Shown: positions 1,382 through 18,247, numbered from the stretch's first letter. The stretch: 33,198 nt of DNA from Candidatus Rokuibacteriota bacterium (GCA_050731995.1 JBOHQB010000074.1:1-33198); one strand, 5' to 3'. Program-made: numbers and translations. Notes: generated by a model not told the origin, from the letters alone.

Positions 1382-2617
1382 ATGAGCCTCACGGTCTTCA
1401 CCGACGCGTTCCTCATCGACTGCACGGGCGCGGATCCGATCGAGGCCGCCGCGGTCGTCGTCGAGGACGACCGGATCGAGGACGTCCTGCCTAACGGGAA
1501 GGTCGGTCCGCTGCCGGGGCCGGTCACGACCGTGGACTGCAAGGGCATGACGCTCATGCCGGGACTCACCGACGCCCACGTCCACATCTGCGCCGTCACC
1601 GAGAACATCACGGACCAGCACCGGTATTTCCCGCCGTCGTACATCGCGGCGCGCGCGATGCGACGGGCCGAGGAGTGCCTGATGCAGGGGTTCACCACGG
1701 TGCGCGACGCCGGCGGCGCCGACTACGGCTTCCGACAGGTCCTCGAGGAGGGCCACTTTCCGGGGCCGCGCCTGCTCGTCTCCGGCCGCTACATCTCCCA
1801 GACCGGCGGCCACGGCGACAAGCGCCGCCGCGCCGAGTGGGTGGACCCGATCGACTGCTGCGTCGGCATGATCGGCTTCATCGCCGACGGGCCCGACGCG
1901 GTGCGTCGGGCCACCCGCGAGAACATTCGTCGCGACGTGGACCAGATCAAGATCATGGCCTCGGGCGGCGCGATGTCGCCCTCGGACGAGCTCGACACGA
2001 CGCAGTTCACGGTCGCCGAGATGCGCGCCGCCGTCGAGGAAGCCCAGGCCGTTGGCAAGTACGTACTCTCGCACGCGTACTCCGACACCGCCGTGCGCAA
2101 GGCGATCGAGGCCGGCGTGCGCTCGATCGAGCACGGCAACCTGATCCGTGAAGCGGCGGCCAAGGCGATCAAGGACGCGGACGCGTTCCTCGTGCCGACC
2201 ATGGTGACCTACGAGGCGATCTACCGCGAGGGCAAGCGCTACGGCATCGGCGACCACCAGATCGCCAAGATCGACCTGGCGCGCCAGCAGTCGGTGCAGG
2301 GACTCACCTACGCCTACAAGGCCGGCTGCAAGATCGGCTCGGGCTCCGATCTGCTGGGCGACATGGCGAGCCAGCGCGCCGTCGAGTTCGAGCTGAAGGC
2401 GCAGGTGATGAAGCCGATGGAGGTGCTGCTCTCGGCGACGAAGGTCAACGCCGAGCTGTTCAGGATGCAAGACCGGATCGGAACGGTGGAGCCCGGGAAG
2501 TACGCCGACCTGATCCTCGTCGAGGGCAACCCGCTGAAGACCCTCCGAGTCTTCCAGGCCCCCGACAATCTCAAGGTCATCATGAAGGGCGGGCGCTTCT
2601 ACAAGCGGACGGTGTGA
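1382..2617 (+). CDS. Metal-dependent amidohydrolase family protein
   Basis: 411 aa. N-terminal beta-sandwich followed by the PGLTDAHVHI (HxH metal-binding) motif. Later H and D ligand blocks are present (SHAYS, IEHGN, GSGSD). Starts 7 nt after the upstream stop. Confidence 0.85.
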   Translation: MSLTVFTDAFLIDCTGADPIEAAAVVVEDDRIEDVLPNGKVGPLPGPVTTVDCKGMTLMPGLTDAHVHICAVTENITDQHRYFPPSYIAARAMRRAEECLMQGFTTVRDAGGADYGFRQVLEEGHFPGPRLLVSGRYISQTGGHGDKRRRAEWVDPIDCCVGMIGFIADGPDAVRRATRENIRRDVDQIKIMASGGAMSPSDELDTTQFTVAEMRAAVEEAQAVGKYVLSHAYSDTAVRKAIEAGVRSIEHGNLIREAAAKAIKDADAFLVPTMVTYEAIYREGKRYGIGDHQIAKIDLARQQSVQGLTYAYKAGCKIGSGSDLLGDMASQRAVEFELKAQVMKPMEVLLSATKVNAELFRMQDRIGTVEPGKYADLILVEGNPLKTLRVFQAPDNLKVIMKGGRFYKRTV

Positions 2618-2665
2618 TCGGCGATCCTACGGCCTCCCCTCGACCCCCGCAAGACGATCCAAACG

Positions 2666-2693
2666 CAGACAGATGTTAGAGAAATGATAGACT
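2666..2693 (+). promoter_or_regulatory. Candidate sigma70-type promoter (extended -10 TGaTAGACT) for the plus-strand operon; would give a leaderless GTG start at 2701
   Basis: Sits in the only AT-enriched stretch between 2618 and 2700. tgaTAGACT lies at 2685-2693, 7 nt before the GTG at 2701. A weak -35-like cAGACA lies at 2666-2671 (16-nt spacer). No Shine-Dalgarno sequence. Confidence 0.3.
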
Positions 2694-2700
2694 CGCCGGC

Positions 2701-3483
2701 GTGACGACGAGCCATCGCGAGCAGATCCTCGACCAGTTCACGCGCCAGGCGGCGCCCTTCTCGACCGCGCCGTCGATCAAGGACGAGGCGGCGCTCCGGC
2801 TGATCGTCGAGTTCGGCGGCGCCACCGCCGACGACACCGTGCTCGACGTGGCGTGCGGCGGGGGTCTCGTCGTCTGCGCGTTTGCCCGCGTCGTCCGCCA
2901 CGCGACCGGCATCGACATCACGCCGGCGATGCTCGACCGCGCGCGCGCTCACGCCGCGGAGGCCGGGCTGACCAACGTCGCGTGGCGCCAGGGCGACGTG
3001 CTGCCGCTCCCCTGGCCGGACGCGTCGTTCTCGATCGTCACCTCACGCTTCGCCTTCCATCACCTCGAAGACCCCCGCGCGGCCCTCGCCGAGATGCGCC
3101 GTGTCTGCGTCCCGGGCGGGACGGTCATGGTCATCGACAGCGCGCCGGCGACCGACAAGGCCGACGCCTTCAACGCCGTGGAGCGGTTGCGCGACCCATC
3201 ACACGTGCGCGCCATGCCTCTCGAGGAGCTACGCGCGCTGTTCAGCGCGGTCGGTCTTCCCGACCCGCGTGTCACGTCCTATCGCCTCGAGGGAGAGCTG
3301 GACGGGCTCCTGTCGCGCTCCTTCCCGCGCCGGGAGGACGTTCCGACGCTCCGCCGCCTGTTCGAGGACTCGCTCGCCGACGACCGTCTCGGCATCGCGG
3401 CCCGGCGCGACGGCAACCGCATCCGCTACGGCTACCCCGTGGCGGTGCTCGCCGCCACGCGAACCCGCACGCGAACGGAGTGA
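2701..3483 (+). CDS. Class I SAM-dependent methyltransferase (Methyltransf_11/UbiE-like)
   Basis: 260 aa with a GTG start. SAM motif I VLDVACGGG, plus downstream motif blocks (GDVLPLPWPDASFSIV, PGGTVMVID). Confidence 0.8.
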   Translation: MTTSHREQILDQFTRQAAPFSTAPSIKDEAALRLIVEFGGATADDTVLDVACGGGLVVCAFARVVRHATGIDITPAMLDRARAHAAEAGLTNVAWRQGDVLPLPWPDASFSIVTSRFAFHHLEDPRAALAEMRRVCVPGGTVMVIDSAPATDKADAFNAVERLRDPSHVRAMPLEELRALFSAVGLPDPRVTSYRLEGELDGLLSRSFPRREDVPTLRRLFEDSLADDRLGIAARRDGNRIRYGYPVAVLAATRTRTRTE

Positions 3484-3486
3484 GCG

Positions 3487-3795
3487 ATGGGACGGATCGT
3501 GATCGCCGTCGTCTGCGTGCTGCTGATCGTCGTCGGGTGGCGTGCCCCGCGCTACCGCTCGCTCGCCGTCGGCGCGACAGGCGTGCTCATCTTCCTCACT
3601 TCGGTCCTCGCGTGGCGCTTCCTCATCCACTCGGAGACGATCTCCCTAGACCGGCTGCTCGGCCGATACTGGCTCTCCACGATCGACGTCCCAACGCACC
3701 TGCTCGTCTTCTTCGGCCCACCGGCCGTCTTCACCGCGCTGGTCTTCCTGCTCTTCGGCAAGCACATCACGCCGCCCGCGGCGGATGACGAGTAG
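3487..3795 (+). CDS. Small hypothetical integral membrane protein (about 3 predicted TM segments)
   Basis: 102 aa with GC3-rich codons. Hydrophobic runs IVIAVVCVLLIVVGW, VGATGVLIFLTSVLAW and LLVFFGPPAVFTALVFLLF. Starts 3 nt after the methyltransferase stop and overlaps dus by 11 nt. Confidence 0.55.
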   Translation: MGRIVIAVVCVLLIVVGWRAPRYRSLAVGATGVLIFLTSVLAWRFLIHSETISLDRLLGRYWLSTIDVPTHLLVFFGPPAVFTALVFLLFGKHITPPAADDE

Positions 3796-4690
3796 CCTCG
3801 ACCTCAGGCTGGCGCCGATGGCCGGCGTCACGAACGCGCCCTTCCGTCTCGTGGCGCGCGAGTGCGGCGCCGGCCTCCTGACGAGTGAAGAGATCGATGC
3901 GCGCGCCCTCGTGAGGGAGAGCGCCCACACGCGCGAGCTGGCGCGCTTCCTGCCGGGGGAGCGTCCGCTCGCGATGCAGCTGCTCGGCGCGGACCCCGAC
4001 GTCCTCGCCGATGCCGCACGCATGCTCGAGGCCGCGGGCGCCGACGCGATCGACCTCAACATGGGCTGCCCGGTGGCGAAGATCGTCGCCAAGGGTCAGG
4101 GCGCGGCGCTCATGCTCGACCCGCTTCAGGCCGCGGTGATCTTCCGCACGCTCCGCAAGGCCGTGTCCGTCGACTTCACGATCAAGATCCGGGGCGGCTG
4201 GGACGAGCGCGTCGTCAACGCCGTGGAGATCGCGCGCATCGCCGAAGGCGAGGGCGTGGACGCGATCACCGTGCACCCGCGCACGCGCTCGCAGCAGTTC
4301 ACGGGCCGGGCGCCGTGGGAGATCATCGCCGCCGTCGTGGACGCCGTCGCGATCCCCGTCGTCGGCAACGGCGACGTCCGGAGCCACGCCGACGCCGCCC
4401 TCATGGTCGCGGCGACGGGCTGCGCCGCTGTGATGATCGGGCGAGGCGCGCTCGGCGCGCCCTGGATCTTCCGGGGCGAGGACGTCCCCCGCGAGGAGCG
4501 GGCCGGGATCATCCGCCGCCACTGCGCGCTCATCGAGATCCACCTGCCTGCCCGCCTGGCGCTCGTCCAGCTCAAGAAGCACCTGGCGTGGTATTCCTCG
4601 GGACTGGCGGGCTCGGCGGCTGCGCGCGAGCGTCTCTTCCAGGCGGCGACACCCGGCGAGGTCTACGAGATCTTCTGGTCGCTCTGGTGA
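3785..4690 (+). CDS. dus: tRNA-dihydrouridine synthase (Dus family FMN oxidoreductase)
   Basis: 301 aa. LAPMAGVTNAPFRL N-terminal motif, IDLNMGCPV catalytic-Cys motif, ITVHPRT block, and a C-terminal helical domain. Confidence 0.85.
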   Translation: MTSSLDLRLAPMAGVTNAPFRLVARECGAGLLTSEEIDARALVRESAHTRELARFLPGERPLAMQLLGADPDVLADAARMLEAAGADAIDLNMGCPVAKIVAKGQGAALMLDPLQAAVIFRTLRKAVSVDFTIKIRGGWDERVVNAVEIARIAEGEGVDAITVHPRTRSQQFTGRAPWEIIAAVVDAVAIPVVGNGDVRSHADAALMVAATGCAAVMIGRGALGAPWIFRGEDVPREERAGIIRRHCALIEIHLPARLALVQLKKHLAWYSSGLAGSAAARERLFQAATPGEVYEIFWSLW

Positions 4691-5136
4691 ACGGGCAGCG
4701 GTGGTTCGAGGACTTCAAGATCGGCGAACGTTTCGCGAGCCCGTCGAAGACGCTGACCGACGCTCACTTCCTCTTCTTCGCCGGCATGACCGGCGACGCC
4801 CACCCCATCCACTATGACGACGAGTACGCGAAGAAGACGCGCTTCGGCCGGCGGCTCGCCCACGGGTTCCTACTGACGTCGCTCACCGCGGTCGGCGCGT
4901 CCACGCTGGCGCCGGTCATCGAGGACTCGATCGTCGCCTTCGTCGAGGCTACGACACGCTTCCGCGCTCCGGCCTTCATCGGCGACACGCTCAAGCCCGA
5001 GCACGAGATCGTCGGGCTCGAACGCAAGCGCTCGGCGGGCCTGCTCACGCTGCGCGTCACCCTCACCAACCAGCGCGGCGAGACGGTCCTCGGGGGCGAG
5101 CACAAGTATCTGATCGCGTATCGCTCGGGCGCATGA
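4687..5136 (+). CDS. MaoC-like (R)-specific enoyl-CoA hydratase / hotdog-fold dehydratase
   Basis: The listed ORF 4315..5136 has an Arg/Pro-rich non-coding-looking N-terminus. An in-frame GTG at 4687 overlaps the dus stop (GTGA). From there the product VNGQRWFEDFKIGERF...GDAHPIHYDDEYAKKTRFGRRLAHGF is a typical single hotdog of 149 aa. Confidence 0.75.
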   Translation: MNGQRWFEDFKIGERFASPSKTLTDAHFLFFAGMTGDAHPIHYDDEYAKKTRFGRRLAHGFLLTSLTAVGASTLAPVIEDSIVAFVEATTRFRAPAFIGDTLKPEHEIVGLERKRSAGLLTLRVTLTNQRGETVLGGEHKYLIAYRSGA

Positions 5137-6458
5137 CCTGGGCGGTCCTGGCCGCGCTCGTCCTCTTCCTCGTTGCCGCGCCGGCCGTCGCCGAGGAGCC
5201 ATCGTGGAGGCTCGCCGACTACGGGCTCAAGGGTCAGCTGATTTACAAGAACTTCACGTATTTCTCCGAGACGTCGACGGACCCGCAGAAGGTCGTCGAC
5301 GAGGGCATCTTCCAACTCGAGTGGGCGCGTCGTTGGGGCGCGTGGGGCTCCAGCAAGCTCGTTGTGGAGGCGCGCGGCGACGACATCGGCTTCACGCGCG
5401 GGCTGACCTTTCAGATTCCCGAGACGGCCCTGCGACGAAGCTACCTCGCGGTGAAGGAGTCGACCTTCGCAGTGCGCGGCGGGCCGCTCGAGGTGACGCT
5501 GGGCAAGCAGATTTTTGCGTGGGGCGCCGCCGACGCGAACAACCCCACCGACCGGATCAACCCCTACGACTATCTCGACCCGTTCGACAACGAGAAGATG
5601 GGCCTGTGGTCCGCGGCGGCCCGCCTCACCGTCGGGCCCGCCAGCCTGGTCTTCGTGACCGTGCCGTTCTTCACGCCCAGCCGGCTGCCTCTCGCGAGGA
5701 GCCGCTGGATCCCCGAGGCGCCGCCCGGCTTCAACGCGGTGGTCGACCATCCCGTGCGGCCCGACCAGGACGCCGGCGCCACCCAGTACGCCGCCCGGCT
5801 CCGGACGACCGTGGCGGGCTGGGACGTCTCGGTCAGCTACTACGACGGCTTCGCCCACACCCCCGCGTTCCGGCAGTCGGTCATCGCCGTCGCTCCGGGC
5901 GTGTTCCTGCCACGCCTCACGCCCGTGTTCACGCGCGAGAAAGACGCGGGCCTCGACTTCTCGACCACGATCGGTCGATTCGAGATCCACAGCGAGGGCG
6001 TCTTCCGCTTCGTCGTGTCCAACGGCCGCGACGACCGCTTTCAGGGGATCGCCGGCATCAACTACACGCAGGACGTCGGCCTCCGCTGGCTGGACCAGAT
6101 CGTCCTTGTGCTCGAGTACGCGCGCGAAACGGTGCTGCGTCACATCCGCCATTCCGGGATCATCGACAACCAGAACGCGCCGCTGATCGGCGCGCTCCTG
6201 GCCGACGAGGCGTTTCGCGATGCGGTCGTCGGACGGATCCAGGTCAAGCTCACGGAGGACACGGTGCTGAAGCTGAGCGGCATCGCCGATCTCAGCGGGC
6301 CCCCAAGCCACTACATCCAGTTCAAGGCCACGCACCGGATCACCGACGCCCTCCACGTCGAGGCCGGGCTGGACTTCATGACCGGAACCCGCGACACTTT
6401 CTTCGGCCGCTGGGGGGACAACGATCGGTTCTTCCTCATGCTCCGCTATCTGTTCTGA
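5133..6458 (+). CDS. Putative outer-membrane beta-barrel protein (DUF1302-like / lipid-export associated)
   Basis: 441 aa. Signal peptide MTWAVLAALVLFLVAAPAVA-EE. Alternating beta-strand pattern. LTLGKQIFAWGAADANNPTDRINPYD block. C-terminal LMLRYLF with a terminal Phe (OMP signature). ATGA overlap with the maoC-like stop. Confidence 0.6.
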   Translation: MTWAVLAALVLFLVAAPAVAEEPSWRLADYGLKGQLIYKNFTYFSETSTDPQKVVDEGIFQLEWARRWGAWGSSKLVVEARGDDIGFTRGLTFQIPETALRRSYLAVKESTFAVRGGPLEVTLGKQIFAWGAADANNPTDRINPYDYLDPFDNEKMGLWSAAARLTVGPASLVFVTVPFFTPSRLPLARSRWIPEAPPGFNAVVDHPVRPDQDAGATQYAARLRTTVAGWDVSVSYYDGFAHTPAFRQSVIAVAPGVFLPRLTPVFTREKDAGLDFSTTIGRFEIHSEGVFRFVVSNGRDDRFQGIAGINYTQDVGLRWLDQIVLVLEYARETVLRHIRHSGIIDNQNAPLIGALLADEAFRDAVVGRIQVKLTEDTVLKLSGIADLSGPPSHYIQFKATHRITDALHVEAGLDFMTGTRDTFFGRWGDNDRFFLMLRYLF

Positions 6459-6468
6459 TGGAGGGCTC

Positions 6469-7257
6469 ATGAGGCACGCTCCGAAGCGAGTCCTTCTGTG
6501 CGCCGTCGCGCTCGCCCTGTTCGTGCCGGCGCCGGCCGTGGCCCAGTCCGGCCTCGACATCATGAAGCGCCAGCGCGAGCTCCAGCGGGTCCGTGACGAG
6601 GAGGAGCGCCAGGTCCTCAAGCTCGTCAGCAAATCGGGGGCGTCCAAGGAGCGTAGGCTCGTGCGCTACACGCTGACCGGTTCCGGCGACCTCGACAAGA
6701 TCCTGGTCCGGTTCCAGGCGCCGCGTGACGTCGAGAACACCGCGCTGCTCACCTGGGAGGCCAAGGACGGCAACGACGACCAGTGGCTCTACCTGCCGTC
6801 GATCAAGAAGCCGAAGCGCATCGCGGCGAGCGGTAAGAAGAACCGCTTCATGGGCACGGATTTCGCCTTCGAGGACCTCCGGCCCGAGAACCTCACGGTC
6901 CACGCCTACGCCCTGACGGGCTCCGAGACGCTCGACGGGGTCGACTGCTTCGTCATCGACGCGACGCCATCGACGGAGCGCCAGGCGGCCGACAGCGGGT
7001 ACAGCCGACGCAAGATATGGATCCGCAAGGACACCCACGTCACTCTCAAGCGCGAGTTCTACGACAGGCAGGGCCGGCTCGAGAAGGTCGAGACCCACAG
7101 AAAGCTCGTGAACCAGAGCGGCAGCGTCTGGCGCGCCAACGAAGTCGAGATGAGCGACGTGCAGAACGGCACCCGCACGCTGGTGACCGTGGAATCGCGC
7201 GTCATCAATCAGGGGCTGAAGGACGATTTCTTCACGGAAGCTGAGCTGATTCGTTGA
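6469..7257 (+). CDS. Outer-membrane lipoprotein-sorting (LolA-like) periplasmic protein
   Basis: 262 aa. Signal peptide ending AVAQS. Characteristic DQWLYLPSIKKPKRIAASGKKNRFMGTDFAFEDL block of the LolA-like family that accompanies COG1033-type RND exporters. GGAGGG SD lies upstream. Confidence 0.8.
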   Translation: MRHAPKRVLLCAVALALFVPAPAVAQSGLDIMKRQRELQRVRDEEERQVLKLVSKSGASKERRLVRYTLTGSGDLDKILVRFQAPRDVENTALLTWEAKDGNDDQWLYLPSIKKPKRIAASGKKNRFMGTDFAFEDLRPENLTVHAYALTGSETLDGVDCFVIDATPSTERQAADSGYSRRKIWIRKDTHVTLKREFYDRQGRLEKVETHRKLVNQSGSVWRANEVEMSDVQNGTRTLVTVESRVINQGLKDDFFTEAELIR

Positions 7258-10019
7258 AGCGCATCCTGCTCTGGCTCTTCGAGCATCCGGTCGCATCCTG
7301 CGCGGCCGTGCTCGCGGTGACCGTGCTCCTCGGCTGGCAGATCCCCCGGCTCCGGATCGACGACTCGGCCGAGGGGCTGACGGTCGTGAACGACCCCGCC
7401 CGCAGCGTCTACGAGCTTGCCCGGAAGCGCTTCGGGAGCGACAACCTCACGGTCGTCCTCGTCAAGGCCGACGACGTCTTCGCGCCGGCCGTGCTGGCGG
7501 TCGTCCGGCGACTGTCCGACGGCCTCGTCCGGCTGCCGAACGTCAGCCGCGTGGAGAGCCTCACCACCGTCAAGAACATCCGGGGCGAGGGCGACTCGCT
7601 CAACACGGATCTTCTCATCGAGACCCTGCCCCGCACGCCGGAGGAGGTCGAGCGCATCCGCCGCGACGCCCTCGGAACCCGCGTGCTGGTCGGCAACCTC
7701 GTCGCCCGGGACGCCAGGGCCACCGCGATCACCGTGTACGCCGATCCGCGTGCCGACGACCCCGGCTTCAACCATCGTTTCGTCGGTCAGGTTGAGGCGC
7801 TGATCGCACGAGAGACCAAGCCGGGGCTCATCATCTATCAGGTCGGCGGGCCATTCATCAAGACCACGTACGCCGACTACATCACCCGCGATCAGAAGAC
7901 GGTCGTTCCGCTGTCGATCCTGGTGCTGCTCGGCGCCCTCCTGCTCTCGTTCCGGATGCTGCAGGGCGTGGTCATCCCGGTGATCACCGCGATCGTCAGC
8001 ATCGTCTGGGCGCTGGGCCTCATGGTGCTCTTCGACCTGCCGCTGACGATCCTCACCGGGATCATTCCGTCGCTGCTCCTGGCCATCGGCTTCACCGAAG
8101 ACGTGCACATGATCGCCGCGTACCACCATCACCTCGAGAGGGGTCAGGACAAGCTGAGCGCGATCCGGAGCATGCTCGAGGAGGCCGCGCTGCCCATCCT
8201 CGTCACCACCGGCACGACCGTGGTGGGCTTCGGCAGTCTCGTGACGACCGACATCACGATGCTGATCCAGTTCGGCTGGGCGTCGTCGCTCGGTCTCACC
8301 GCGAACTTCGTCGTCACCATGGCCCTGCTGCCGCCGATGCTGCGCTGGTGGAAGGTGCCCCGACGGTTCCGTCGCGCCGCCTTCGAGGACGAGTCCGAGC
8401 ACGGCATGATCCCCCGGCTCATGGAGCGCCTGGCGGAGTTCAACCTGCGATACCGGGTGCCGATCCTCGTCGTCAGCGGGCTCCTCACGGTCGGTTCGCT
8501 GATCGGCTGGTACACGCTGCGCGTCAACACGGACATCGTTAGCTTCTTCCCGGTGAGCTCGCCCGTCCGAACCCGCCTCGAGGACCTGCACCGCTCGATG
8601 TCTGGCGGACTGGCTTTCTACATCGTCGTCGACACGGGGCGCGAGGACGGGGTCAAGGACCCGGCGGTCCTCCGCACGATCGCCGGGCTTCAGGATTTCC
8701 TCGCGTCGACCGGCAAGGTGGACAAGAGCGTGTCGGTCGCCGACTACGTCCGCAAGATGAATCGGGAGATGCACGGTGGGGACCCGGCCTGGGAGACGAT
8801 CCCCGACACGCGCGATCAGGTGGCCCAGTACCTCCTGACCCTGGAGGGGCCGGAACTGGCGAAGTTCCTCGACTTCAACGCCGGGGCGGCGAACATCGTC
8901 GTGCGCCACGATCTCACGGGCTCCGGAGACCTGTCCGCCCTCCTAGGCCAGATCCAGGCCTGGGTGGCCCGGAGCGTCCCGGCCAACGTCAGCGTCAAGC
9001 CGACCGGCGAGGCAATCCTGTTCAACAACGCCTCCGACTTCATGGCGATCAACGAGCTGACCAGCTTCGTCTGGACCTTCATCATCATCGGCCTCATCCA
9101 CGCCGTGCTCTTCATGTCCTTCAAGGCGGGTGCGCTGTCGCTCATCCCCAACGCCGTGCCGATCCTCTTCAACTATGGTGTGATGGGGCTGCTCGGCATC
9201 CCCTTGAACACGAGCAATGCCCTGATCGCGACCATCGCCATCGGGATCGCGGTCGACGACACGGTGCACCACATGGTGACCTACAGCCGTCAGCTGAACC
9301 TCCACCACGATCAGAAGATCGCGATGCTCAACACCATGCGGGCGCAGGGGCGTCCGATCATCTATGTCTCGGTGGCACTGGCGGCCGGCTTCCTCGCGCT
9401 GGTCTTCTCGAGTTTCGTGCCCACGGTACATTTCGGCTGGCTGGCCGCGACCGTCATGCTCCTCGCGATGGTCACCGAGCTGGTGCTCACGCCGATCCTG
9501 ATGTATTCCACCCGCCTGATCACGCTGTGGGACTTGGTGCTCACGCGCATGAATCCCGACGTCGTACGCACGGCGCCGCTCCTCCATGGCCTCTCCCGGT
9601 GGGAGGCACGCAAGGTCGTTCTCCTCGGCCGCCTCGACGAGGTCACGGCCGACGCGCTGATCGTGGGCAAGGGGGAAACGGGCACCGAGATGTACATGAT
9701 CGTGAGCGGCCGCGTGCGCGTCTTCGACCGGCTCTCGAACGGCGCCGAGAAGACGCTCACCATCCTGGGTCCCGGCGAGATCTTCGGCGAGATGGCGCTC
9801 GTGAGCCAGGAGCCGCGCAGCGCCTCGGTCATTGCCGAGATGCCAACCACGGTCCTGCGTCTGGACTTCGAGGCTTTCGAACGGATCCGTCGGCGCTTCC
9901 CCTACACCGGCGCCAAGCTCTTCCGGAACCTCGCGCGCGTGCTGGCCGGTCGCCTGCGCGAGCTGACGGTCGTCGTGGTCGAGGGGGTCCCGCTGGCCGG
10001 AGGCGGCGAGTCTCGCTGA
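7254..10019 (+). CDS. RND-superfamily (MMPL/HpnN-like, COG1033-type) lipid exporter fused to a C-terminal cyclic-nucleotide-binding domain
   Basis: 921 aa. The TTG start overlaps the upstream stop (TTGA). Two internally duplicated halves, each a periplasmic domain plus a TM bundle, carry paired charged TM motifs (AIGFTEDVHMI and AIGIAVDDTVHHM). C-terminal CNB domain is described in the next feature. Confidence 0.85.
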   Translation: MKRILLWLFEHPVASCAAVLAVTVLLGWQIPRLRIDDSAEGLTVVNDPARSVYELARKRFGSDNLTVVLVKADDVFAPAVLAVVRRLSDGLVRLPNVSRVESLTTVKNIRGEGDSLNTDLLIETLPRTPEEVERIRRDALGTRVLVGNLVARDARATAITVYADPRADDPGFNHRFVGQVEALIARETKPGLIIYQVGGPFIKTTYADYITRDQKTVVPLSILVLLGALLLSFRMLQGVVIPVITAIVSIVWALGLMVLFDLPLTILTGIIPSLLLAIGFTEDVHMIAAYHHHLERGQDKLSAIRSMLEEAALPILVTTGTTVVGFGSLVTTDITMLIQFGWASSLGLTANFVVTMALLPPMLRWWKVPRRFRRAAFEDESEHGMIPRLMERLAEFNLRYRVPILVVSGLLTVGSLIGWYTLRVNTDIVSFFPVSSPVRTRLEDLHRSMSGGLAFYIVVDTGREDGVKDPAVLRTIAGLQDFLASTGKVDKSVSVADYVRKMNREMHGGDPAWETIPDTRDQVAQYLLTLEGPELAKFLDFNAGAANIVVRHDLTGSGDLSALLGQIQAWVARSVPANVSVKPTGEAILFNNASDFMAINELTSFVWTFIIIGLIHAVLFMSFKAGALSLIPNAVPILFNYGVMGLLGIPLNTSNALIATIAIGIAVDDTVHHMVTYSRQLNLHHDQKIAMLNTMRAQGRPIIYVSVALAAGFLALVFSSFVPTVHFGWLAATVMLLAMVTELVLTPILMYSTRLITLWDLVLTRMNPDVVRTAPLLHGLSRWEARKVVLLGRLDEVTADALIVGKGETGTEMYMIVSGRVRVFDRLSNGAEKTLTILGPGEIFGEMALVSQEPRSASVIAEMPTTVLRLDFEAFERIRRRFPYTGAKLFRNLARVLAGRLRELTVVVVEGVPLAGGGESR
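9570..10016 (+). other. Cyclic-nucleotide-binding (CAP/PKA-type) domain at the C-terminus of the RND exporter
   Basis: LIVGKGETGTEMYMIVSGRVRV...LGPGEIFGEMALVSQEPRSASVIA. The phosphate-binding cassette has the conserved FGE Glu and RSA Arg, and a hinge helix follows (LDFEAFERIRRRFP). Confidence 0.75.
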
Positions 10020-10020
10020 C

Positions 10021-11379
10021 ATGAACCGGCGCACCGGAGGGACGTGGGACGTGGTGATCGCCGGCGGCGGCGTGGCCGGCGTATCGGTGGCCGCCGCGCT
10101 GGGCGAGTTCGGCTATCGCGTCCTGCTCGTCGAGCCGGGCCTCAACGGCGCCAAGCGGCTCGCCGGCGAGCTGATCCATCCCCCCGGTGTCAGTGACCTC
10201 GCCGACCTCGGGCTGCTGGCGCCGCTCGAGCGGATCGGCGTGGCACCGGTCCTCGGCTTCGCGGTCTCGCCGCACGCGGACGCGGCGCCCTATCTGCTCC
10301 CCTACGGCGCGATCCCCGGCGTCCGGCGCCGTGGTTTCGCGCTGGACCACGCGGTGCTCACCGTCACGCTGTTCGCCGCCGCCAAGCAACTGCCGCACGT
10401 CACGACGTGGCAGGACGCGCGCGTGTGCGACCTGGACCTGACGCCGGACGGCGCGACCGTGCTGATCGCGCGTCCGAACGGTCCGACATCCGTGCGCGCG
10501 CGGCTCGTCGTCGCGGCGGACGGCGGCGCGTCCACCGTACGCCGCCTGGCGTCCATCGCGCACACGCGCGTCCGCCTCTCGCACATGCTCGGCGTGCAGC
10601 TCCCGGGCCCCCTGCCCGAGGCGGGCTTCGGCAACGTGTTCCTCGGCGGCCCCGCCCCGGTGCTCGCGTACGCGATCGACGACGTCACGGCGCGCGTGAT
10701 GTTCGACGTCCCCGGCAACCCCGACGGCATCGCCGCCGTCCGTCGCGATCCCGCGTACCTGGCCGCCCTGCCCCGCGAGTTCCGTGAGCGCGTGCGCGCC
10801 GCCGTCCACGCCGAGCCGGGTCTCGTGTGCGCGAACTACTGCGTCGTTCCCGAGGCGGTCGCCACCGGTTGCGTGGTGCTCGTCGGCGACGCGGCCGGCT
10901 CCTGCCACCCGCTCACGGCTACGGGGCTCAGCGCCTGCACGCGCGACGCGATCCGCCTCCGGCAGGCCCTGCGCGAGGCCGACGGCGACATTCCGCTCGC
11001 GGTCCGCCGCTACGCGCGCGCCCGCGGCGGGCCGCAGCGCACCCGGGTCGCGCTCGCCGAGGCGCTCTACCGGGCCTTCGCCGACCCGTCGGACGAGATG
11101 CGGCTCCTGCGCAACGGAATCTTGAAATTCTGGCAGCGCAGTCGCCGCGGCCGTGCGGCCTCGATGGCGCTCCTCTCCACGCACGAAGGGCGCATGTCGG
11201 TCATGGCGGTGCAATACGCGCGCGTGCTGGGTTACGCGCTCACCGGGCTTGTCCGTCTCCGCGGTGACGGGCGGGCGCGCTCGCCGCTCGCGCGCGCCCG
11301 CGCCGTGATGCGGCTTACCCGCGCGGCCCTCGGCCTGCTCGCGCAGGCGTACAGGGGCCGGCGTCTCCGGCACACCTGA
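10021..11379 (+). CDS. sqmo: Squalene monooxygenase / squalene epoxidase (ERG1/SQLE family flavoprotein)
   Basis: 452 aa. DVVIAGGGVAGVSVAAAL Rossmann motif. GELIHPPG (compare eukaryotic GELLQPGG). VVAADGGASTVRR. VLVGDAAGSCHPLTATGLS (compare GDAxNMRHPLTGGGMT). Starts 1 nt after the RND stop. Confidence 0.8.
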   Translation: MNRRTGGTWDVVIAGGGVAGVSVAAALGEFGYRVLLVEPGLNGAKRLAGELIHPPGVSDLADLGLLAPLERIGVAPVLGFAVSPHADAAPYLLPYGAIPGVRRRGFALDHAVLTVTLFAAAKQLPHVTTWQDARVCDLDLTPDGATVLIARPNGPTSVRARLVVAADGGASTVRRLASIAHTRVRLSHMLGVQLPGPLPEAGFGNVFLGGPAPVLAYAIDDVTARVMFDVPGNPDGIAAVRRDPAYLAALPREFRERVRAAVHAEPGLVCANYCVVPEAVATGCVVLVGDAAGSCHPLTATGLSACTRDAIRLRQALREADGDIPLAVRRYARARGGPQRTRVALAEALYRAFADPSDEMRLLRNGILKFWQRSRRGRAASMALLSTHEGRMSVMAVQYARVLGYALTGLVRLRGDGRARSPLARARAVMRLTRAALGLLAQAYRGRRLRHT

Positions 11380-11393
11380 GCGCCCGTCTCAGG
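11375..11393. terminator. Short hairpin at the convergent operon junction (possible bidirectional terminator)
   Basis: CCTGAG (11375-11380) and CTCAGG (11388-11393) form a 6-bp stem around the 7-nt loop cgcccgt. The stem includes both stop codons (TGA 11377-11379 on plus, TGA 11391-11389 on minus). No U-tract. Confidence 0.2.
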
Positions 11394-13356
11394 CCGCCCG
11401 CGCCGTCGCGCGGTCCGGCCCGGCTTGGCGCGCATAGCGCGCGAGCGCCCAGGCCGGGAAGTAGGCCGAGTACAGCCGATAGTCCAGCATCGCAGTGCCG
11501 AAGAAAACGCCGTTGACGGAGCCGGCGGGCCATCCTCCGTTCGCCTCCTGTCGCGCGCACAGCCAGTCGATGCCCCGCTCGACCGACGCGTGGGTGGCGC
11601 CGACGACGTCGAGCAGTGCGAGCAACGCCCACGCGGTCTGCACCGGCTGGCTGAGGGCGTGCTCGACGTAGCGGTCGTGCAGACATCCCGACCAGTGCTC
11701 CCCCCAGCCGCCGTCCGGACGCTGCCGCGCGACGAGCCACTCGGCGGCGCGAACCAGGGCGAGGTCATCGGCCGCCACGCCGGCGCCGCGCAGCCCCGCG
11801 ACGAAGTGGAAGGCGCCGTACGTGAAATTGATGCCCCACGCTCCCGTGATCGCGCCGTCGACGCGCTGGCTCGCGCGGAGGAATCGAACGCCTCGCTCGA
11901 TCGCCGGCGCGACGCCCGGCACCAAGGTCGGGTCGCGCCGTCCGAGTCGCGCGAGCGCCGACACGCACGAGGCGGTGCATTCGATGTACGAGCGCTCTGT
12001 CATGCAGCGACCGAACATCTCGGACGCGTTGAGCCGCTCGAGCCACGGGCCGCCGCGGCGCGGCTCGTAAGTCCCAAAACCGCCATCGCGGTTCTGGCGG
12101 GCGAGGATGAATCGGGCCGCGAGGGCCAGCCGTGTCGCCGGCGTCCGTTCGGACTGGGGGATGACCGGCTCCGCGCTCAGCAGCGCGCTCACCGCCTCGG
12201 CGGTGCAATCGCTCACCGGCCAGCGATGGACCCCGTCGGAGAAGCACCAGCCGCCCGCGGTCGGCTCGCGGTCCTGCTCTCGCCAACGCGGCAGCTCGCT
12301 CGTGAGCTGCGTGTCGCGCAGGAATCCGTAGCCGCGCCGGACGGCCGCGGCGTGCGCCGGCTCGTCGCCCGTCGTGAGCGCGCGGAGCGCGAAGGCGGTG
12401 TCCCAGGCGTTCGAGCGGGCCCCGGCGTAGCGGATTCCGCCCGCGTCCTCCCAGCGCCAGCCTTCGAGGCCGTCCAGGCTGGCGGCCAGCGCCGGGTCGG
12501 CCGGATCGTGCGCCCACAGCGACAGGCAGTCGAGGACCGCGTTGACCGGCGACAAGCCGAGCCACCGGCTCTCGCGCTGCTCGTAGCGGATGCGATCGAG
12601 GCACGCGTCGAGCGCGCGCCGGCGCAGCCTGACGGGAGTCACGCGGTCCACGCCGGACAGCACCGACGCCGCCACGCGCAGACCGGGGCCCGGACGCACG
12701 TACAGGTCGCTCGCCGCCACGTCGTGGCGGTGGGCCGCGAAGTCGAGGGTCGCGTACGGCTCCGCGTAGAGCTCCTCGCGCAGCGCCGCGCCGAGGGGTC
12801 CGAGGTCGGCGGTGACTCGCCGCCCGTACACATAGGCCACCGCCAGATAGATGTAGCGCGTGTGGCAGTACCAGCGGGCCGGGTGGAACGGGAGGAGCCG
12901 CGGCAACGCGTAGAGCTCGGGCAGCACCGGCGTGACGCCGGCCCAGCCGTAGAGCCCGAGCAGCGCAAGCCAGAGCTTGCCCCACGTGGGGATCGCCAGC
13001 ACGCCGCCCGCCTGTCCCCGCAGCCAGCCGCGCGCGTCGGCGACGAGCGGCTCGTCGCGCTCGAGGCCGAGCAGCCGCAGCGCGACGTACACCAGCGTGG
13101 TGACGAAGACGTACCCCGCCGACTCCGGATGAAGGCCCCACGCGCCGTCGGCCGTTCGCACTCCGCGCAGGTAGCGAACGATCCCCGCACGGGTCGCCGC
13201 GCCGACCGGACGCCCGACGACGTGGCGGACGATGACGACCTGGGCCGTGATCATCGGGCACCACACCACCTCGCCCTCCCAGTCGCCGCGCGGTGACTGC
13301 AGCGTCACGAGGCGGGCGAGGGCGCTATCGCGCGCGGCGGCGGCGGCCGCGAGCAT
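11389..13356 (-). CDS. osc: Oxidosqualene cyclase (lanosterol/cycloartenol/parkeol synthase type terpene cyclase)
   Basis: The listed ORF reaches 13476, but Met41 at 13356 overlaps the upstream stop by 1 nt (TGATG), giving 655 aa. OSC-type catalytic motif WPVSDCTAEA at 12196-12222, not the SHC-type DxDDTA. Multiple QW repeats (RFLRASQRVDGAITGAWG, EWLVARQRPDGGWGE, DWLCARQEANGGWP, FILARQNRDGGFG). Confidence 0.9.
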   Translation of the reverse strand: MLAAAAAARDSALARLVTLQSPRGDWEGEVVWCPMITAQVVIVRHVVGRPVGAATRAGIVRYLRGVRTADGAWGLHPESAGYVFVTTLVYVALRLLGLERDEPLVADARGWLRGQAGGVLAIPTWGKLWLALLGLYGWAGVTPVLPELYALPRLLPFHPARWYCHTRYIYLAVAYVYGRRVTADLGPLGAALREELYAEPYATLDFAAHRHDVAASDLYVRPGPGLRVAASVLSGVDRVTPVRLRRRALDACLDRIRYEQRESRWLGLSPVNAVLDCLSLWAHDPADPALAASLDGLEGWRWEDAGGIRYAGARSNAWDTAFALRALTTGDEPAHAAAVRRGYGFLRDTQLTSELPRWREQDREPTAGGWCFSDGVHRWPVSDCTAEAVSALLSAEPVIPQSERTPATRLALAARFILARQNRDGGFGTYEPRRGGPWLERLNASEMFGRCMTERSYIECTASCVSALARLGRRDPTLVPGVAPAIERGVRFLRASQRVDGAITGAWGINFTYGAFHFVAGLRGAGVAADDLALVRAAEWLVARQRPDGGWGEHWSGCLHDRYVEHALSQPVQTAWALLALLDVVGATHASVERGIDWLCARQEANGGWPAGSVNGVFFGTAMLDYRLYSAYFPAWALARYARQAGPDRATARAA

Positions 13357-14429
13357 CAGGAGTGCGCGGGTGCGGCGCCCGCCAAATACTCCTCCCACTT
13401 CTTCACGGTGAGCTGCTGGAAGAGGCCGACCGCCGGGTTGAGGTCGGGCACCGGCCGATCGTGGTGCGTCTCCCACCCGCGCTGCTCGGCCTCCACGGCG
13501 AAGCCGTCCTGGGCGAGCAACGGGTGGATGAGGACCCGGTTGGAGATCCGGAGCACGAGCGTCATCAGCCGACGTGGGATGCGGAGTGGCGTGAGCGGGA
13601 TCCTGAGCGATTCAAAATAGAAGAGGAAAAACGTCCGGGTCGTGCTCTCGTCGATCGGCAGGAAGAAGCACCAGTGCTTGATCTTGCCGTCCGTGTTCGA
13701 CCACTGGTACGGGTACTCGTAGCAGAGATCCATCGCGTTCGTATTCACACGACGCCGGTCCACGAACAGTCCCGAGATCCGGCCGCGCCCGACGCGCGTA
13801 TCGTAGGAGACGTGGACGGCGTCGCCGACCCGCTCGCAGCGGGTGAGCCGCGCGTCCTCGAACGGCCGGTATTTGCGGTGCAGCCACGCATGGGTGAAAT
13901 CGCTCACGTTGTCGACGACCATCGAGTGGTGCGCACGCCACGTGAAGTCGAGCGGCACGCACGCCCAGCGCCCGGGGTCCTCGAGCTCCGGGATATCGGG
14001 AATCGATCGACGGTCGGCCCGCGCGGGATCGCCCGGGTAGACCCAGACGAGGCCGTAGCGCGCCTTCACGGGGTACGTGCGCAGCGTGACCTTCGGCAAC
14101 GGGCGGCCGAACAGCTCGTGAGGCACGTGCGCGAGTCGGCCGGTCCCATCGTACGCCCAGCCATGATAGGCGCACGTCAGCCGGCAGTCCTCCACGCTGC
14201 CGAGCGTCAGCTTCAGCTGACGGTGGGCGCAGCGGTTCTCGACCGCGTGGAGCGCGCCGTCTTCGTCGCGCCACAGCGCGATCGACTGCCCCCAGAACTG
14301 AGTCTCGACGACGGCGCCGGGTTGCACCGCGCGGTCGTACTCGACCGCGTACCAATAGTCCGGATGCAGGCCGGCCGCGCGGGCCTTCTCGCGCAGGTTG
14401 CGCGCCTCGGCGAACGACGGGCCGCTCAC
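13356..14429 (-). CDS. Rieske [2Fe-2S] non-heme-iron oxygenase, SdmA-like (candidate sterol C-4 methyl oxidase), paralogue 2
   Basis: The 661-aa listed ORF is an artefactual 5' extension. The GTG at 14429 overlaps the upstream stop (GTGA) and aligns with the Met start of the paralogue, giving 357 aa. Rieske motif CAHRQLKLTLGSVEDCRLTCAYHGW. Mononuclear-iron motif DNVSDFTHAWLH. Confidence 0.8.
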   Translation of the reverse strand: MSGPSFAEARNLREKARAAGLHPDYWYAVEYDRAVQPGAVVETQFWGQSIALWRDEDGALHAVENRCAHRQLKLTLGSVEDCRLTCAYHGWAYDGTGRLAHVPHELFGRPLPKVTLRTYPVKARYGLVWVYPGDPARADRRSIPDIPELEDPGRWACVPLDFTWRAHHSMVVDNVSDFTHAWLHRKYRPFEDARLTRCERVGDAVHVSYDTRVGRGRISGLFVDRRRVNTNAMDLCYEYPYQWSNTDGKIKHWCFFLPIDESTTRTFFLFYFESLRIPLTPLRIPRRLMTLVLRISNRVLIHPLLAQDGFAVEAEQRGWETHHDRPVPDLNPAVGLFQQLTVKKWEEYLAGAAPAHS

Positions 14430-15496
14430 GCCGGAACCCCGGCGGACCCGGCCCGGGCCAGGTGCGCCTCCCACTTCCGAATGGTGAGCCGGTGGAGCAG
14501 GGCGACGGCCGGATTCAGCTCGACGAGGGGCGCGTCCCAGTGGGCCTCGTAGCCGCGCTGCTCCGCTTCCAGCGCCACGCGGTCCTGATCGAGGAGCGAG
14601 CGTACGAACGGCTGGATCGCGGCGAGGACCCACCGGAGGGCCCGGTGCGGCGGCGACACCGGCAGCCCCGGCACGCGGAGCCGGTCGTAGGCCATCACGA
14701 AGAAAACGCGCGTGGTGCGGACGTCCATCGGCAGCAGAAACGTCCAGTACCTGATCTGCCCGCGGATGCCCGACCACTCGAACGCCGCCCAATGGTACGG
14801 GTACTCGAAACATATCGTCATCGGTGACGGAGCCACGTCGTGCCGCACGCGGGGCCCCACCTTCGCCTCGTAGCGCAGGAGGACGCGGTCGTCCGTGGCG
14901 TCCCAGTCGAGCAACCGCCCCGGCTGGAACGACGCGAACCTCCGGTGCAGGTGCGCGTGCGTCAGATCGCAGAGGTTGTCCATCACCATCGAGTGATGCG
15001 CGCGCCACGTGAAGTCGATCGGCACATACGCCCACGGTTCGGAGCCCTCGAGCACCGGCACCTCCGGCAGCGGGACGCGCGCGGCCAGCGTGGGGTCGCC
15101 CGGGAAGATCCAGATCAACCCGTAGCGCTCGAGGACGGGATAGTGGCGGATGTGCACGGACGGCATCGAGTGCCCGAACCGGTCGTGGGGCACGTCCACG
15201 AGCCGTCCGGCGTCGTCGTACGTCCAGCCGTGATAGGCGCAGGCCAGGCGGCAGCCCTCCACGCTGCCGAGCGAGAGCGGCAGCTGGCGATGGGCGCAGC
15301 GGTCCTCGAGCGCGTGCACGCGGCCGTCGGTATCCCGCCACAGGACGATGGCCGCGCCCCAGAACGAGGTGGCGCGGATCGCGCGCAGCGGCAGCCTGCG
15401 CTCGTATTCGACCGCATACCAGTGATTCGGATCGAGCCCGGCCGCGCGGACCTTCTGGCGCAAGCCGACGGCGTCGGCGAACGCCGGCGGCGTCAT
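14426..15496 (-). CDS. Rieske [2Fe-2S] non-heme-iron oxygenase, SdmA-like (candidate sterol C-4 methyl oxidase), paralogue 1
   Basis: The ATG at 15496 overlaps the CYP51 stop (ATGA), giving 356 aa. CAHRQLPLSLGSVEGCRLACAYHGW and DNLCDLTHAHLH motifs. Collinear with the downstream paralogue along its whole length. Confidence 0.8.
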   Translation of the reverse strand: MTPPAFADAVGLRQKVRAAGLDPNHWYAVEYERRLPLRAIRATSFWGAAIVLWRDTDGRVHALEDRCAHRQLPLSLGSVEGCRLACAYHGWTYDDAGRLVDVPHDRFGHSMPSVHIRHYPVLERYGLIWIFPGDPTLAARVPLPEVPVLEGSEPWAYVPIDFTWRAHHSMVMDNLCDLTHAHLHRRFASFQPGRLLDWDATDDRVLLRYEAKVGPRVRHDVAPSPMTICFEYPYHWAAFEWSGIRGQIRYWTFLLPMDVRTTRVFFVMAYDRLRVPGLPVSPPHRALRWVLAAIQPFVRSLLDQDRVALEAEQRGYEAHWDAPLVELNPAVALLHRLTIRKWEAHLARAGSAGVPA

Positions 15497-16881: not shown

Positions 16882-17876
16882 GCCCGCGGACCGATCTTGC
16901 CGCGCCTCACGAAGTCCTCGTACGCATCGCGCACGGCATCCTCGACGGAGGTCGGCTGGTACCCGAGCTCCGTGCGCGCCTTGGTGATATCGGCGCGTCG
17001 GTGCATTCGGAGGATTCGGACCGCGCCAGGCGTGAAGCGCGGCTCCACATCAGGGGCGAGTCGGCGCACGAAGAAGTCGAGCATCTCGGCCAGACCGGCC
17101 ATCAGGGGCGGCGGCACCCGCAACCGCGGCCGGGGCCGCCCGGTGACACGCTCGTACATCGCCATCAGCTCGTCGACCGTCTTGAACTCGGTCGAGAAGA
17201 TGTATTTCTGGCCGCTTCGCCCCTTGTCCATCGCCAGCAGGTGCCCCTGAACGATGTCGCGCGCGGCGACGAACTCGAAGCCGCCCGGGACATACGCGCG
17301 CAGTCGTCCGCGCGCGAAGTCGAGGAGCAGCTGGCCCATCCGCGACGGCTTGAAGTCGTGCGGGCCCAGGATGGCGCACGAGGTCGCGATGACGACGTCG
17401 AGACCGTCCACGACGGCCTTGAGGCATTCGTGCTCCACCGCCACCTTGCTGCGCTGGTAGGGCAGCAGCGGCGCGAACGGATCGACCGGCACCGTTTCGT
17501 CGCTCGGCCGGAGCGGATCGTGGCCGACCGCGCTGAAGGAGCCGGTAACGACGACGCGCTCGACCCCCGCGTCGAGCGACGCGCGGAGCAGATGACGCGT
17601 GCCGAGCACGTTGCAGGCGTAGATCTCTTTCTGCTGGCCTTCGGCGCTCGAGACCTTGGCCGCGCAGTGGTAGACGCGCTCGCAGCCGCGGACCGCAGCC
17701 CGCGTCTCACCCGCGTCGCGAAGATCGCCCCAGACGGTCTCGACGTCGAGGCCGGCCAGCGCCTCGACGGAGGCGTGAGATCGTTCGAGAACCCTGACCT
17801 CCTGGCTCTCGTCGAGAAGGCGTCGGACCAGGTTCGCGCCGAGATGCCCACTGCCGCCCGTCACGAGCACGCGCAT
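16878..17876 (-). CDS. NAD(P)-dependent epimerase/dehydratase / 3-beta-hydroxysteroid dehydrogenase family protein (SdmB-like, candidate C-4 decarboxylase/3-ketoreductase partner)
   Basis: 332 aa. VLVTGGSGHLGANLV Rossmann motif and catalytic YQRSK (YxxxK). Extended-SDR length. First gene of a five-gene overlap-coupled operon. Confidence 0.8.
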   Translation of the reverse strand: MRVLVTGGSGHLGANLVRRLLDESQEVRVLERSHASVEALAGLDVETVWGDLRDAGETRAAVRGCERVYHCAAKVSSAEGQQKEIYACNVLGTRHLLRASLDAGVERVVVTGSFSAVGHDPLRPSDETVPVDPFAPLLPYQRSKVAVEHECLKAVVDGLDVVIATSCAILGPHDFKPSRMGQLLLDFARGRLRAYVPGGFEFVAARDIVQGHLLAMDKGRSGQKYIFSTEFKTVDELMAMYERVTGRPRPRLRVPPPLMAGLAEMLDFFVRRLAPDVEPRFTPGAVRILRMHRRADITKARTELGYQPTSVEDAVRDAYEDFVRRGKIGPRA

Positions 17877-17884
17877 GGGCTCAC

Positions 17885-17913: not shown

Positions 17914-17930
17914 CGGCCGTGTCCGGCCTC

Positions 17931-18240: not shown

Positions 18241-18247
18241 GTCGGCG

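Follow-up and report, generated by a model that had tools for sequence, protein, structure and literature searches.

Why should the genes of an envelope export system stand directly in front of a gene for squalene epoxidase (SE)? This question is raised by a stretch of DNA of 33,198 nucleotides from a Candidatus Rokuibacteriota bacterium (GCA_050731995.1 JBOHQB010000074.1:1-33198; hereafter "the window", meaning that whole stretch). Here, three consecutive genes encode an outer-membrane beta-barrel, a soluble periplasmic carrier with a LolA-like fold, and an inner-membrane RND pump, together called the "triad". An interpretation made from the sequence by itself (the sequence-only reading) saw in the triad a self-contained, possibly undescribed route that delivers sterols to the outer membrane.

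The answer reached here upholds that reading in part. The triad is a known, poorly understood module, like the AmeABCD system of Castellaniella defragrans, that has been recruited lineage-specifically to sterol synthesis in one phylum. Tentatively, with a confidence that stops just short of even, we regard it as a sterol-recruited branch of a widespread module for the export of lipids and other hydrophobes across the envelope, and as one that would move sterol. The sequences and models show the types of the genes, the folds, the translational coupling to SE, and a clade-bound, conserved linkage to sterol genes. We infer sterol as the cargo from gene context, and infer also the direction of transport, the order of hand-off, and the gating by cyclic nucleotides.

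The triad within a sterol-synthesis cluster

The three ORFs lie where the sequence-only reading placed them (5133-10019), and the parts of the triad are these.

5133-6458, plus strand: outer-membrane beta-barrel, a divergent DUF1302 protein, 441 aa (translation, Pfam, AlphaFold2)
6469-7257, plus strand: soluble periplasmic carrier of the LolA3 type (PF17131, LolA_like / TP_0789-like), 262 aa (Pfam, PDB, AlphaFold2)
7254-10019, plus strand: inner-membrane RND transporter of the HAE3/MMPL type, 921 aa, TTG start (Pfam, NCBIfam, hydropathy)
9642-9893, plus strand: cyclic-nucleotide-binding (CNB) domain at the C-terminus of the pump, aa 797-880 (PF00027, E 3.8e-23)

The triad is located within a genuine bacterial sterol-synthesis cluster, whose genes follow.

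10021-11379, plus strand: squalene epoxidase (SQMO, SE; Pfam SE, E 7e-21; FAD_binding_3)
11389-13476, minus strand: oxidosqualene cyclase (OSC), given as the maximal open reading frame (ORF) (TIGR03463 osq_cycl, 869.8 bits against a cut-off of 851)
~13365-14429 and 14441-15496, minus strand: two tandem SdmA-like Rieske/VanA_C oxygenases (Pfam Rieske and VanA_C; tblastn with the paralogue from locus L001)
15493-16881, minus strand: cytochrome P450 (Pfam)
16878-17876, minus strand: SDR / 3beta-HSD-like protein (Pfam)
18248-19531, minus strand: FAD oxidoreductase (Pfam)
19574-20938, minus strand: ERG4/ERG24 sterol reductase (Pfam)

The true start of OSC is probably ~150 nt inside its maximal ORF. 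The SdmA-like genes, which reach 400 bits with the NF052579 SdmA model (under its cut-off of 600), are candidates for C-4 sterol demethylation. A mechanical ORF list merges and over-extends both of them into one 661-aa ORF (13356-15341). No hopanoid genes were found nearby; the one cyclase that the window has is recognised by the oxidosqualene-cyclase model, and no fetched locus outside sterol clusters gave an SHC-like match. Sterol clusters of Rokubacteria have been noted earlier, with transporters unmentioned (PMC7306690).

The triad does not merely lie near these genes; it is translationally coupled to SE. The pump stop codon occupies 10017-10019, a C follows at 10020, and the SE ATG begins at 10021, exactly the 1-nt spacing that had been claimed. 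The sequence-only reading had also described the three genes as joined by ATGA and TTGA overlaps. The TTGA is indeed where carrier and pump genes overlap. The ATGA (5133-5136), however, joins the barrel start to the stop of a MaoC-like gene upstream, and barrel and carrier are separated by a 10-nt gap (stop at 6458, start at 6469) that holds a GGAGGG Shine-Dalgarno sequence. The plus-strand chain as a whole reads Dus-GTGA-MaoC-ATGA-barrel-10 nt-carrier-TTGA-pump-1 nt-SE. Its upstream beginning at Dus had gone unremarked, as had the CNB domain of the pump.

A scan of 2500-13600 gave no promoter-like site, and one of 2700-13600 no terminator-like site on the plus strand, the single terminator found sitting on the minus strand. 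This is compatible with one transcript, yet is no evidence for one.

A clade that keeps its sterol neighbours

The adjacency of the triad to sterol genes exceeds chance; it recurs on many independent contigs. Rokubacterial loci (given here by L numbers) were obtained through look-ups of single homologues of the carrier or the barrel that lie on long contigs. Sterol genes stand beside every fetched locus whose carrier falls in one clade, 13 of 13, the window and 12 others. These 13 sterol-linked carriers are monophyletic by neighbour-joining (bootstrap 0.997), and the sterol-linked pumps are likewise monophyletic (bootstrap 0.94). Every sampled member of the sister clades (L010-L013, L015, L109, L110) is without sterol neighbours. 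The nearest outgroups are Rokubacterial paralogues (L011, L013, L109), a metagenome locus (L110), and loci of the Nitrospirales type.

The linkage takes at least seven gene arrangements, in which the neighbour is SE, EBP, ERG24, or a P450.

Window, L001, L092, L095, L105: barrel-carrier-pump-SE, then OSC on the opposite strand
L003, L089: carrier-pump-SE, no barrel
L009: triad-ERG24-SE-FAD-OSC
L002, L107: triad; P450-CNB fusion; ERG2-ERG24-SE
L006: triad; P450-CNB; second pump-SE
L106, 8635-12182: barrel-carrier-SE, no pump
L108, 8656-12422: barrel-carrier-EBP-ERG24, no pump; carrier/EBP and EBP/ERG24 overlap by 4 nt each
L008: ERG24 divergent from carrier-pump-sulfotransferase; barrel 6 kb away

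At one further locus, L005, the fetched flank stops inside the pump gene and the arrangement is not resolvable. A search that started from SE found the CNB end of the pump, or a remnant of it, immediately upstream in 10 of the 10 metagenome loci that had upstream DNA. A linkage kept through many rearrangements, with different sterol genes coupled in different loci, is the pattern that selection for co-expression would produce.

Some of these loci show peculiarities of their own. L006 has two paralogous CNB-bearing pumps, 58% identical, one in the triad (12146-14938) and one directly upstream of SE (17536-20325). In L105 the triad is intact, and the SE and OSC beside it are called as several short pieces (13593-16845); these two genes have either decayed to pseudogenes or been broken up by frameshifts introduced in assembly. 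In two loci the gene directly 3' of the pump is a Sulfotransfer_3 gene (L005 18317-18718, L008 13192-14259), which hints that a sulfated lipid or sterol might be the cargo in some lineages.

What weighs against a sterol cargo

The case for sterol must be set against several observations that weaken it. The first concerns independence. All linked loci belong to one phylum and share ancestry, and because of this the 13 cases are not independent events.

The second is that the triad is found in many places where sterols are not. For a survey, the carrier profile was run against one genome per species, giving 80 loci that were then searched with the window proteins (flanks up to 10 kb; a pump was counted if within 6 kb). 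These loci span Desulfobacterota, Nitrospirota, Planctomycetota, Verrucomicrobiota, Omnitrophota, Gemmatimonadota, Zetaproteobacteria, Burkholderiales, Spirochaetota, Bacteroidota, and others. A related pump lies within 6 kb of the carrier in 73 of the 80, a related barrel is present in 59, and 55 hold all three genes, in four gene orders. SE, OSC, SdmA, or ERG24 appears in the flanks of one locus only, from Rokubacteria. Since 55/80 loci have the triad and 79/80 are without sterol genes, the architecture alone is uninformative on sterols; it is generic, and by itself not diagnostic of them. The sequence-only reading had named triads beside unrelated genes as an observation that would refute it, and for the architecture as such this observation has largely been made; the sterol linkage is invariable only among the sampled loci of a single Rokubacterial clade.

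Sequence similarity does not separate the two groups cleanly either. Carriers of the sister clades, which have no sterol neighbours, are 63-68% identical to the window carrier, just as distant members of its own clade are. Carriers from Nitrospirales and from a metagenome-assembled genome (MAG) labelled Desulfomonile are 63-64% identical to it; their neighbours are a GAF histidine kinase, a metallophosphoesterase, and a CHASE2 adenylate/guanylate cyclase, with no sterol genes. A single alignment column (Q201 versus K/R/T) sets the sterol-linked carriers apart from their sisters. Two explanations offer themselves: a carrier that is agnostic about its cargo, with specificity located elsewhere, or a similar lipid as the cargo of the sister clades. 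A sterol-adapted pocket built from clade-specific carrier residues was considered and is unsupported, Q201 being the only such residue found.

Third, each part can be dispensed with at the locus. The closest relative (86-89% identical; L003/L089) has no barrel, and there MaoC overlaps the carrier gene directly. The pump is absent from L106 and L108, which keep barrel and carrier. In L093, L094, and L097 the module is largely deleted and SE is intact. In the first two of these, all that is left between MaoC and SE is a 118-aa piece of the pump together with a degraded CNB remnant (L094 630-1320); in the third, barrel residue 316 is fused to pump residue 625 (L097 1-500). The absent parts may be encoded elsewhere, Rokubacteria having paralogous triads. 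The description of the route as "self-contained" does not hold in every lineage. A scheme in which carrier and pump form a conserved core with the barrel optional was dropped after L106 and L108.

A generic exporter

These observations suit the rival that survives best, namely that the module is a generic exporter of envelope lipids or hydrophobes, placed in the cluster for co-regulation or protection, and that sterol is not its cargo. Such an exporter might remove toxic squalene or oxidosqualene, or might export another outer-membrane lipid that is adjusted alongside sterols. In its favour are the occurrence of the triad in many phyla without sterol genes, the near absence of clade-specific residues in the carrier, and the loss of the module from loci where SE remains.

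The known relatives also favour it. AmeABCD, the only one studied, is a DUF1302/LolA-like/HAE3 system for the detoxifying efflux of monoterpenes and Nile Red (PMC6394551), and DUF1302/DUF1329/BNR/COG1033-RND clusters of Shewanella and Pseudomonas are cofit, with pleiotropic fitness phenotypes (bioRxiv 10.1101/072470). Both place a DUF1302 barrel, a LolA-superfamily protein, and an HAE3-family RND protein side by side, as the window does with a pump that is probably of this family. AmeABCD resembles the window further in lying within a gene island devoted to a hydrophobic compound of the isoprenoid type. The likeness is, of course, incomplete. The window is without the fourth, COG4447/BNR gene (AmeC); Pfam scans of the window ORFs judged to be coding gave no BNR or Ycf48-like domain, and none lies between or beside the three genes. 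The window carrier is of the short PF17131/LolA3 type (262 aa), whereas the Ame carrier is of the DUF1329 type (451 aa); the window barrel has 441 aa and is marginally DUF1302, whereas the Ame barrel has 605 aa. Moreover, the window pump carries a CNB domain, and its neighbours are biosynthetic sterol genes rather than catabolic ones.

A generic exporter, however, leaves unexplained why sterol linkage should be confined to one clade and, within it, persist through every rearrangement in 13/13 loci. It does not explain the 4-nt overlaps of carrier, EBP, and ERG24 in L108, or the 1-nt spacing between pump and SE. Further, Rokubacteria hold separate paralogous triads away from sterol genes (L011, L013, L087, L109), which could fill a generic role. 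For these reasons we consider a generic exporter the less likely reading, and continue with the one in which a branch of the module would have been recruited to move sterol.

The pump and its cyclic-nucleotide-binding domain

The pump matches MMPL, Patched, Sterol-sensing (SSD), and cNMP_binding in Pfam, with MMPL passing threshold. Its hydropathy shows 12 hydrophobic segments in a 1+5/1+5 layout, acidic residues in transmembrane segments 4 and 10, and two periplasmic loops of ~185 aa each. The best NCBIfam model is TIGR00921 HAE3 (210 bits over aa 19-750, below the cut-off of 351.9). A sequence search of the PDB with the whole pump was dominated by the CNB domain, HpnN (6WU0) matching only aa 581-750 at 38 bits, and is uninformative for the membrane part.

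The sequence-only reading had called this protein a 12-segment RND exporter of the HpnN/MMPL type. The 12 segments and the MMPL type stand; the assignment to HpnN fails, with 95.8 bits against 751.85 for TIGR03480 and 34.1 against 1100 for NF052374. Orthology to BstA, the pump of the sterol transport system of methanotrophs, also fails (NF045600, 24.3 bits against a cut-off of 1400). Compared with both, then, the pump is an orthologue of neither.

What distinguishes the pump is its C-terminal CNB domain. This scores 81.7 bits with PF00027 (cut-off 27.5), and its phosphate-binding cassette, FGEMALVSQEPRSAS, retains the Glu and the Arg. Its PDB matches are the CNB domains of PKA-R, CRP, and SthK. 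The same domain occurs on the pump in 29 of the 80 species-representative loci (L009-L088), in several other phyla.

Cyclic nucleotides may touch the sterol pathway at a second point. In sister Rokubacteria, a sterol-cluster P450 is fused to a cNMP-binding domain (L002 13579-17439, L006 15057-17246, L107 13503-17360). In L002 and L107 this fusion also includes Fer2_BFD and FAD_binding_6, making a self-sufficient P450 of ~1285 aa. The fusions suggest a cyclic-nucleotide input shared by sterol synthesis and the pump. Further, the orthologous CNB-bearing pump gene of one Nitrospirales MAG is followed directly by a gene for a CHASE2-adenylate/guanylate cyclase (L010 8917-11058); this cyclase is a possible local source of the CNB ligand. 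Cyclic-nucleotide control of the module is predicted because of these three features: the domain on the pump, the P450-CNB fusions, and the L010 cyclase. A search of the literature, with most subscription journals outside its coverage, found no description of RND transporters that are regulated by cyclic nucleotides or fused to CNB domains.

The same features can be put to another use. The pump might be mainly a sensor or regulator, in which an SSD-type domain reports on membrane sterol and the CNB domain couples this report to signalling that controls the sterol enzymes. The Sterol-sensing and Patched matches do cover transmembrane segments 2-6, the CNB domain is intact, and the P450-CNB fusions and the L010 cyclase would fit a signalling role. 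SSD and Patched matches are, however, general among HAE3/MMPL RND pumps, and the acidic residues of segments 4 and 10 are typical of proton coupling. The constant pairing with carrier and barrel, together with natural fusions of pump to carrier (described below), indicates transport, and L106 and L108 retain carrier and barrel where there is no pump to serve. A role chiefly in sensing is, on this evidence, improbable.

The carrier

The sequence-only reading's identification of a LolA-like periplasmic protein is borne out. The carrier matches PF17131 (E 1.6e-55) and, less strongly, DUF1329 (PF07044; E 5.9e-10), and begins with a type I signal peptide (SPI) without a lipobox. By sequence it matches PDB entry 9TP6, the LolA3 of Porphyromonas gingivalis, with E 2.5e-40. 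The AlphaFold2 model (pLDDT 95) is LolA3-like, superimposing on 9TP6, 3BK5, and 4Z48 with TM-scores of 0.84-0.95; those to canonical proteobacterial LolA structures are just 0.3-0.4.

This is not the canonical LolA of the Lol pathway, which is ruled out by the match to PF17131 rather than to the LolA family and by the low TM-scores. No lolCDE or lolB genes lie near the carrier. The family to which it belongs is very large, with 4983 representative clusters at E<=1e-3.

In two natural proteins, P0261 (1038 aa) and P0346 (1036 aa), an MMPL/SSD pump is followed in the same chain by a LolA_like domain. Here, the carrier signal peptide presumably acts as a 13th transmembrane segment. A direct hand-off from pump to carrier is supported because of these fusions, which may themselves be artefacts of gene calling. 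A different join is seen in P0232 (433 aa), where a C-terminal fragment of the fatty-acid-desaturase family precedes a LolA_like domain 62% identical to the window carrier; here an error of gene calling and a genuine neighbour relationship are both conceivable.

The barrel

Translation of 5133-6458 and its AlphaFold2 model (pLDDT 92, 18 beta-strands) agree with the earlier description of a beta-barrel with a signal peptide and a C-terminal Phe. The N-terminal signal peptide is MTWAVLAALVLFLVAAPAVA|EE, and the chain ends in RYLF. With the DUF1302 model (PF06980) the window barrel scores 21.7 bits, just under the cut-off of 23.2. That model is matched by 54 of 61 aligned members of the barrel family (best E 5e-12), and the barrel counts as an outer-membrane protein of the DUF1302 family. 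A word-indexed search gave 111 barrel homologues, those with names all being from Rokubacteria/Methylomirabilota.

The fold search gave no functional lead for the barrel: all that it returned were generic barrels of 16-18 strands (AlgE, Wzi, Occ, porins; TM-score ~0.5). Among solved structures, AlgE, Wzi, and the Occ barrels come nearest, with TM-scores of ~0.53.

A proposed route and its precedents

How might such a module work? The mechanism proposed here is drawn by analogy from RND lipid exporters and LolA-fold carriers. A proton-driven HAE3/MMPL pump would extract a new sterol, or one of its derivatives, from the inner membrane; cAMP or cGMP, acting through the cytoplasmic CNB domain, would gate this activity. 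The pump would then pass the lipid on to the soluble carrier of the LolA3 type, by which it would be shielded across the periplasm. Finally, the 18-strand DUF1302 barrel would receive the lipid and insert or release it at the outer membrane.

Precedents exist for the combination of an RND protein, a periplasmic carrier, and an outer-membrane component in handling polycyclic or isoprenoid lipids: BstABC (PMC10942540), the proposal for HpnN with HpnM/S/T (PMC12324291), and AmeABCD (PMC6394551). Functionally the nearest analogue is BstABC of Methylococcus capsulatus, where an MMPL/RND protein, a periplasmic binder, and an outer-membrane-associated protein are encoded with SdmA/B, OSC, and SQMO (PMC10942540, PMC11713862). 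Colocalisation with sterol-biosynthesis genes and the MMPL-superfamily class of the pump are all that BstABC and the window module have in common, and BstABC was itself discovered through genomic colocalisation (PMC10942540, PMC11713862). The other parts differ. BstB belongs to the PF12974 substrate-binding proteins and BstC to the TatT-type lipoproteins, whereas the window has a LolA3-type carrier and a barrel that are non-homologous to these; among the scanned window ORFs there is no PF12974 or TatT/TPR-type gene. The module therefore stands apart from BstABC, as the sequence-only reading had held. For BstABC sterol binding has been measured, whereas the window module is known here from sequence and models.

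HpnN, also an HAE3/MMPL-type RND protein, is believed to carry a polycyclic triterpenoid in the direction of the outer membrane, with partners proposed from microsynteny (PMC12324291). Those partners, HpnM/HpnS or HpnT, have MlaC/MlaA-like or lipocalin folds (PMC12324291), whereas the window offers a LolA3-like protein and a barrel.

Two further comparisons bear on the carrier. LolA3 of P. gingivalis (9TP6) and Flavobacterium johnsoniae shares with it the PF17131 family, 33% identity, a TM-score of 0.84-0.91, a 13-strand half-barrel, a hydrophobic groove, and the SPI signal peptide. LolA3 has no assigned function, no deletion phenotype, and no LolB binding (PMC13103446, PMC11885536). Unlike the window carrier, it is not reported with sterol genes. 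In the flexirubin locus of Bacteroidota, LolA2/LolB2 offers a LolA-superfamily paralogue tied to one lipid or pigment locus and thought to deliver its product to the outer membrane (PMC11885536). This paralogue, however, is of another LolA subfamily, its partner is a LolB-like lipoprotein where the window has a barrel, and its role there is likewise putative (PMC11885536).

Within the coverage given above, the literature holds no LolA-type or HAE3 sterol route and no transporters in Rokubacterial sterol clusters. To this extent the phrase "possibly undescribed" is justified. As to the architecture it is not, AmeABCD (PMC6394551) and the fitness-profiled clusters (bioRxiv 072470) having already made the DUF1302/LolA-like/HAE3 system known.

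An inward route, in which barrel and carrier capture exogenous soil sterols or hydrophobes for the inner membrane to feed modifying enzymes, is very improbable: DUF1329/DUF1302 genes do occur in catabolic islands (phenanthrene, p-cresol, monoterpenes, Comamonas steroid degradation), and L106 and L108 do have barrel and carrier and no pump, but RND transporters of bacteria generally carry substrates away from the inner membrane, outward, AmeABCD as the one studied relative is an exporter, and SE and OSC equip the cluster for making sterols de novo from squalene, which makes uptake unnecessary.

What an outward sterol route would mean

For the movement of sterols in bacteria, BstABC of methanotrophs is the sole system with any experimental support. 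It is possible, if somewhat doubtful, that the window module represents a second, independently evolved bacterial sterol-trafficking route, built from a cyclic-nucleotide-gated HAE3 pump, a LolA3-type sterol chaperone, and a DUF1302 barrel. If so, a non-homologous sterol module in a second phylum would mean that outer-membrane sterol delivery had more than one evolutionary origin. The large orphan PF17131/LolA3 and DUF1302 families, which comprise thousands of proteins and include those of pathogens such as Porphyromonas and Treponema, would gain a first cargo.

The pump would, further, be the first RND transporter regulated by cyclic nucleotides, and the same signal would control the CNB-fused sterol P450 of some lineages. 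The presence of a CNB domain both on the pump and on the sterol P450 of sister lineages points to cyclic-nucleotide control of membrane sterol content, of which the literature search found no description.

Flanking genes and base composition

The G+C content of the whole window is ~70%, and the closest named relatives of its proteins come from MAGs of Candidatus Rokubacteria / Rokuibacteriota / Methylomirabilota, a soil phylum without cultured members. G+C is 65-67% over the triad (5000-10000) and 74-75% over SE and OSC (10000-13000). A foreign origin of the triad, which its lower G+C might suggest, is ruled out, third-position G+C being similar (0.83-0.92); the gap arises from the amino-acid composition of envelope proteins, not from foreign DNA.

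Two genes precede the triad in the coupled chain.

3785-4690, plus strand: DusB-like tRNA dihydrouridine synthase (Pfam Dus, E 3e-77; TIGR00737, 301 bits)
4687-5136, plus strand: MaoC-like (R)-hydratase/dehydratase, ~149 aa, GTG start at 4687 (MaoC_dehydratas, E 5.6e-18)

DusB is the first gene in the overlapping plus-strand chain, its stop and the GTG start of MaoC sharing GTGA. It is probably context only, and not a functional part of the transport module; its upstream position is conserved in a single type of arrangement. MaoC homologues of 148-150 aa hold the equivalent position in L001, L003, and L107. The pair, coupled to the front of the chain by GTGA and ATGA, is kept in L001, L003, L009, and L107.

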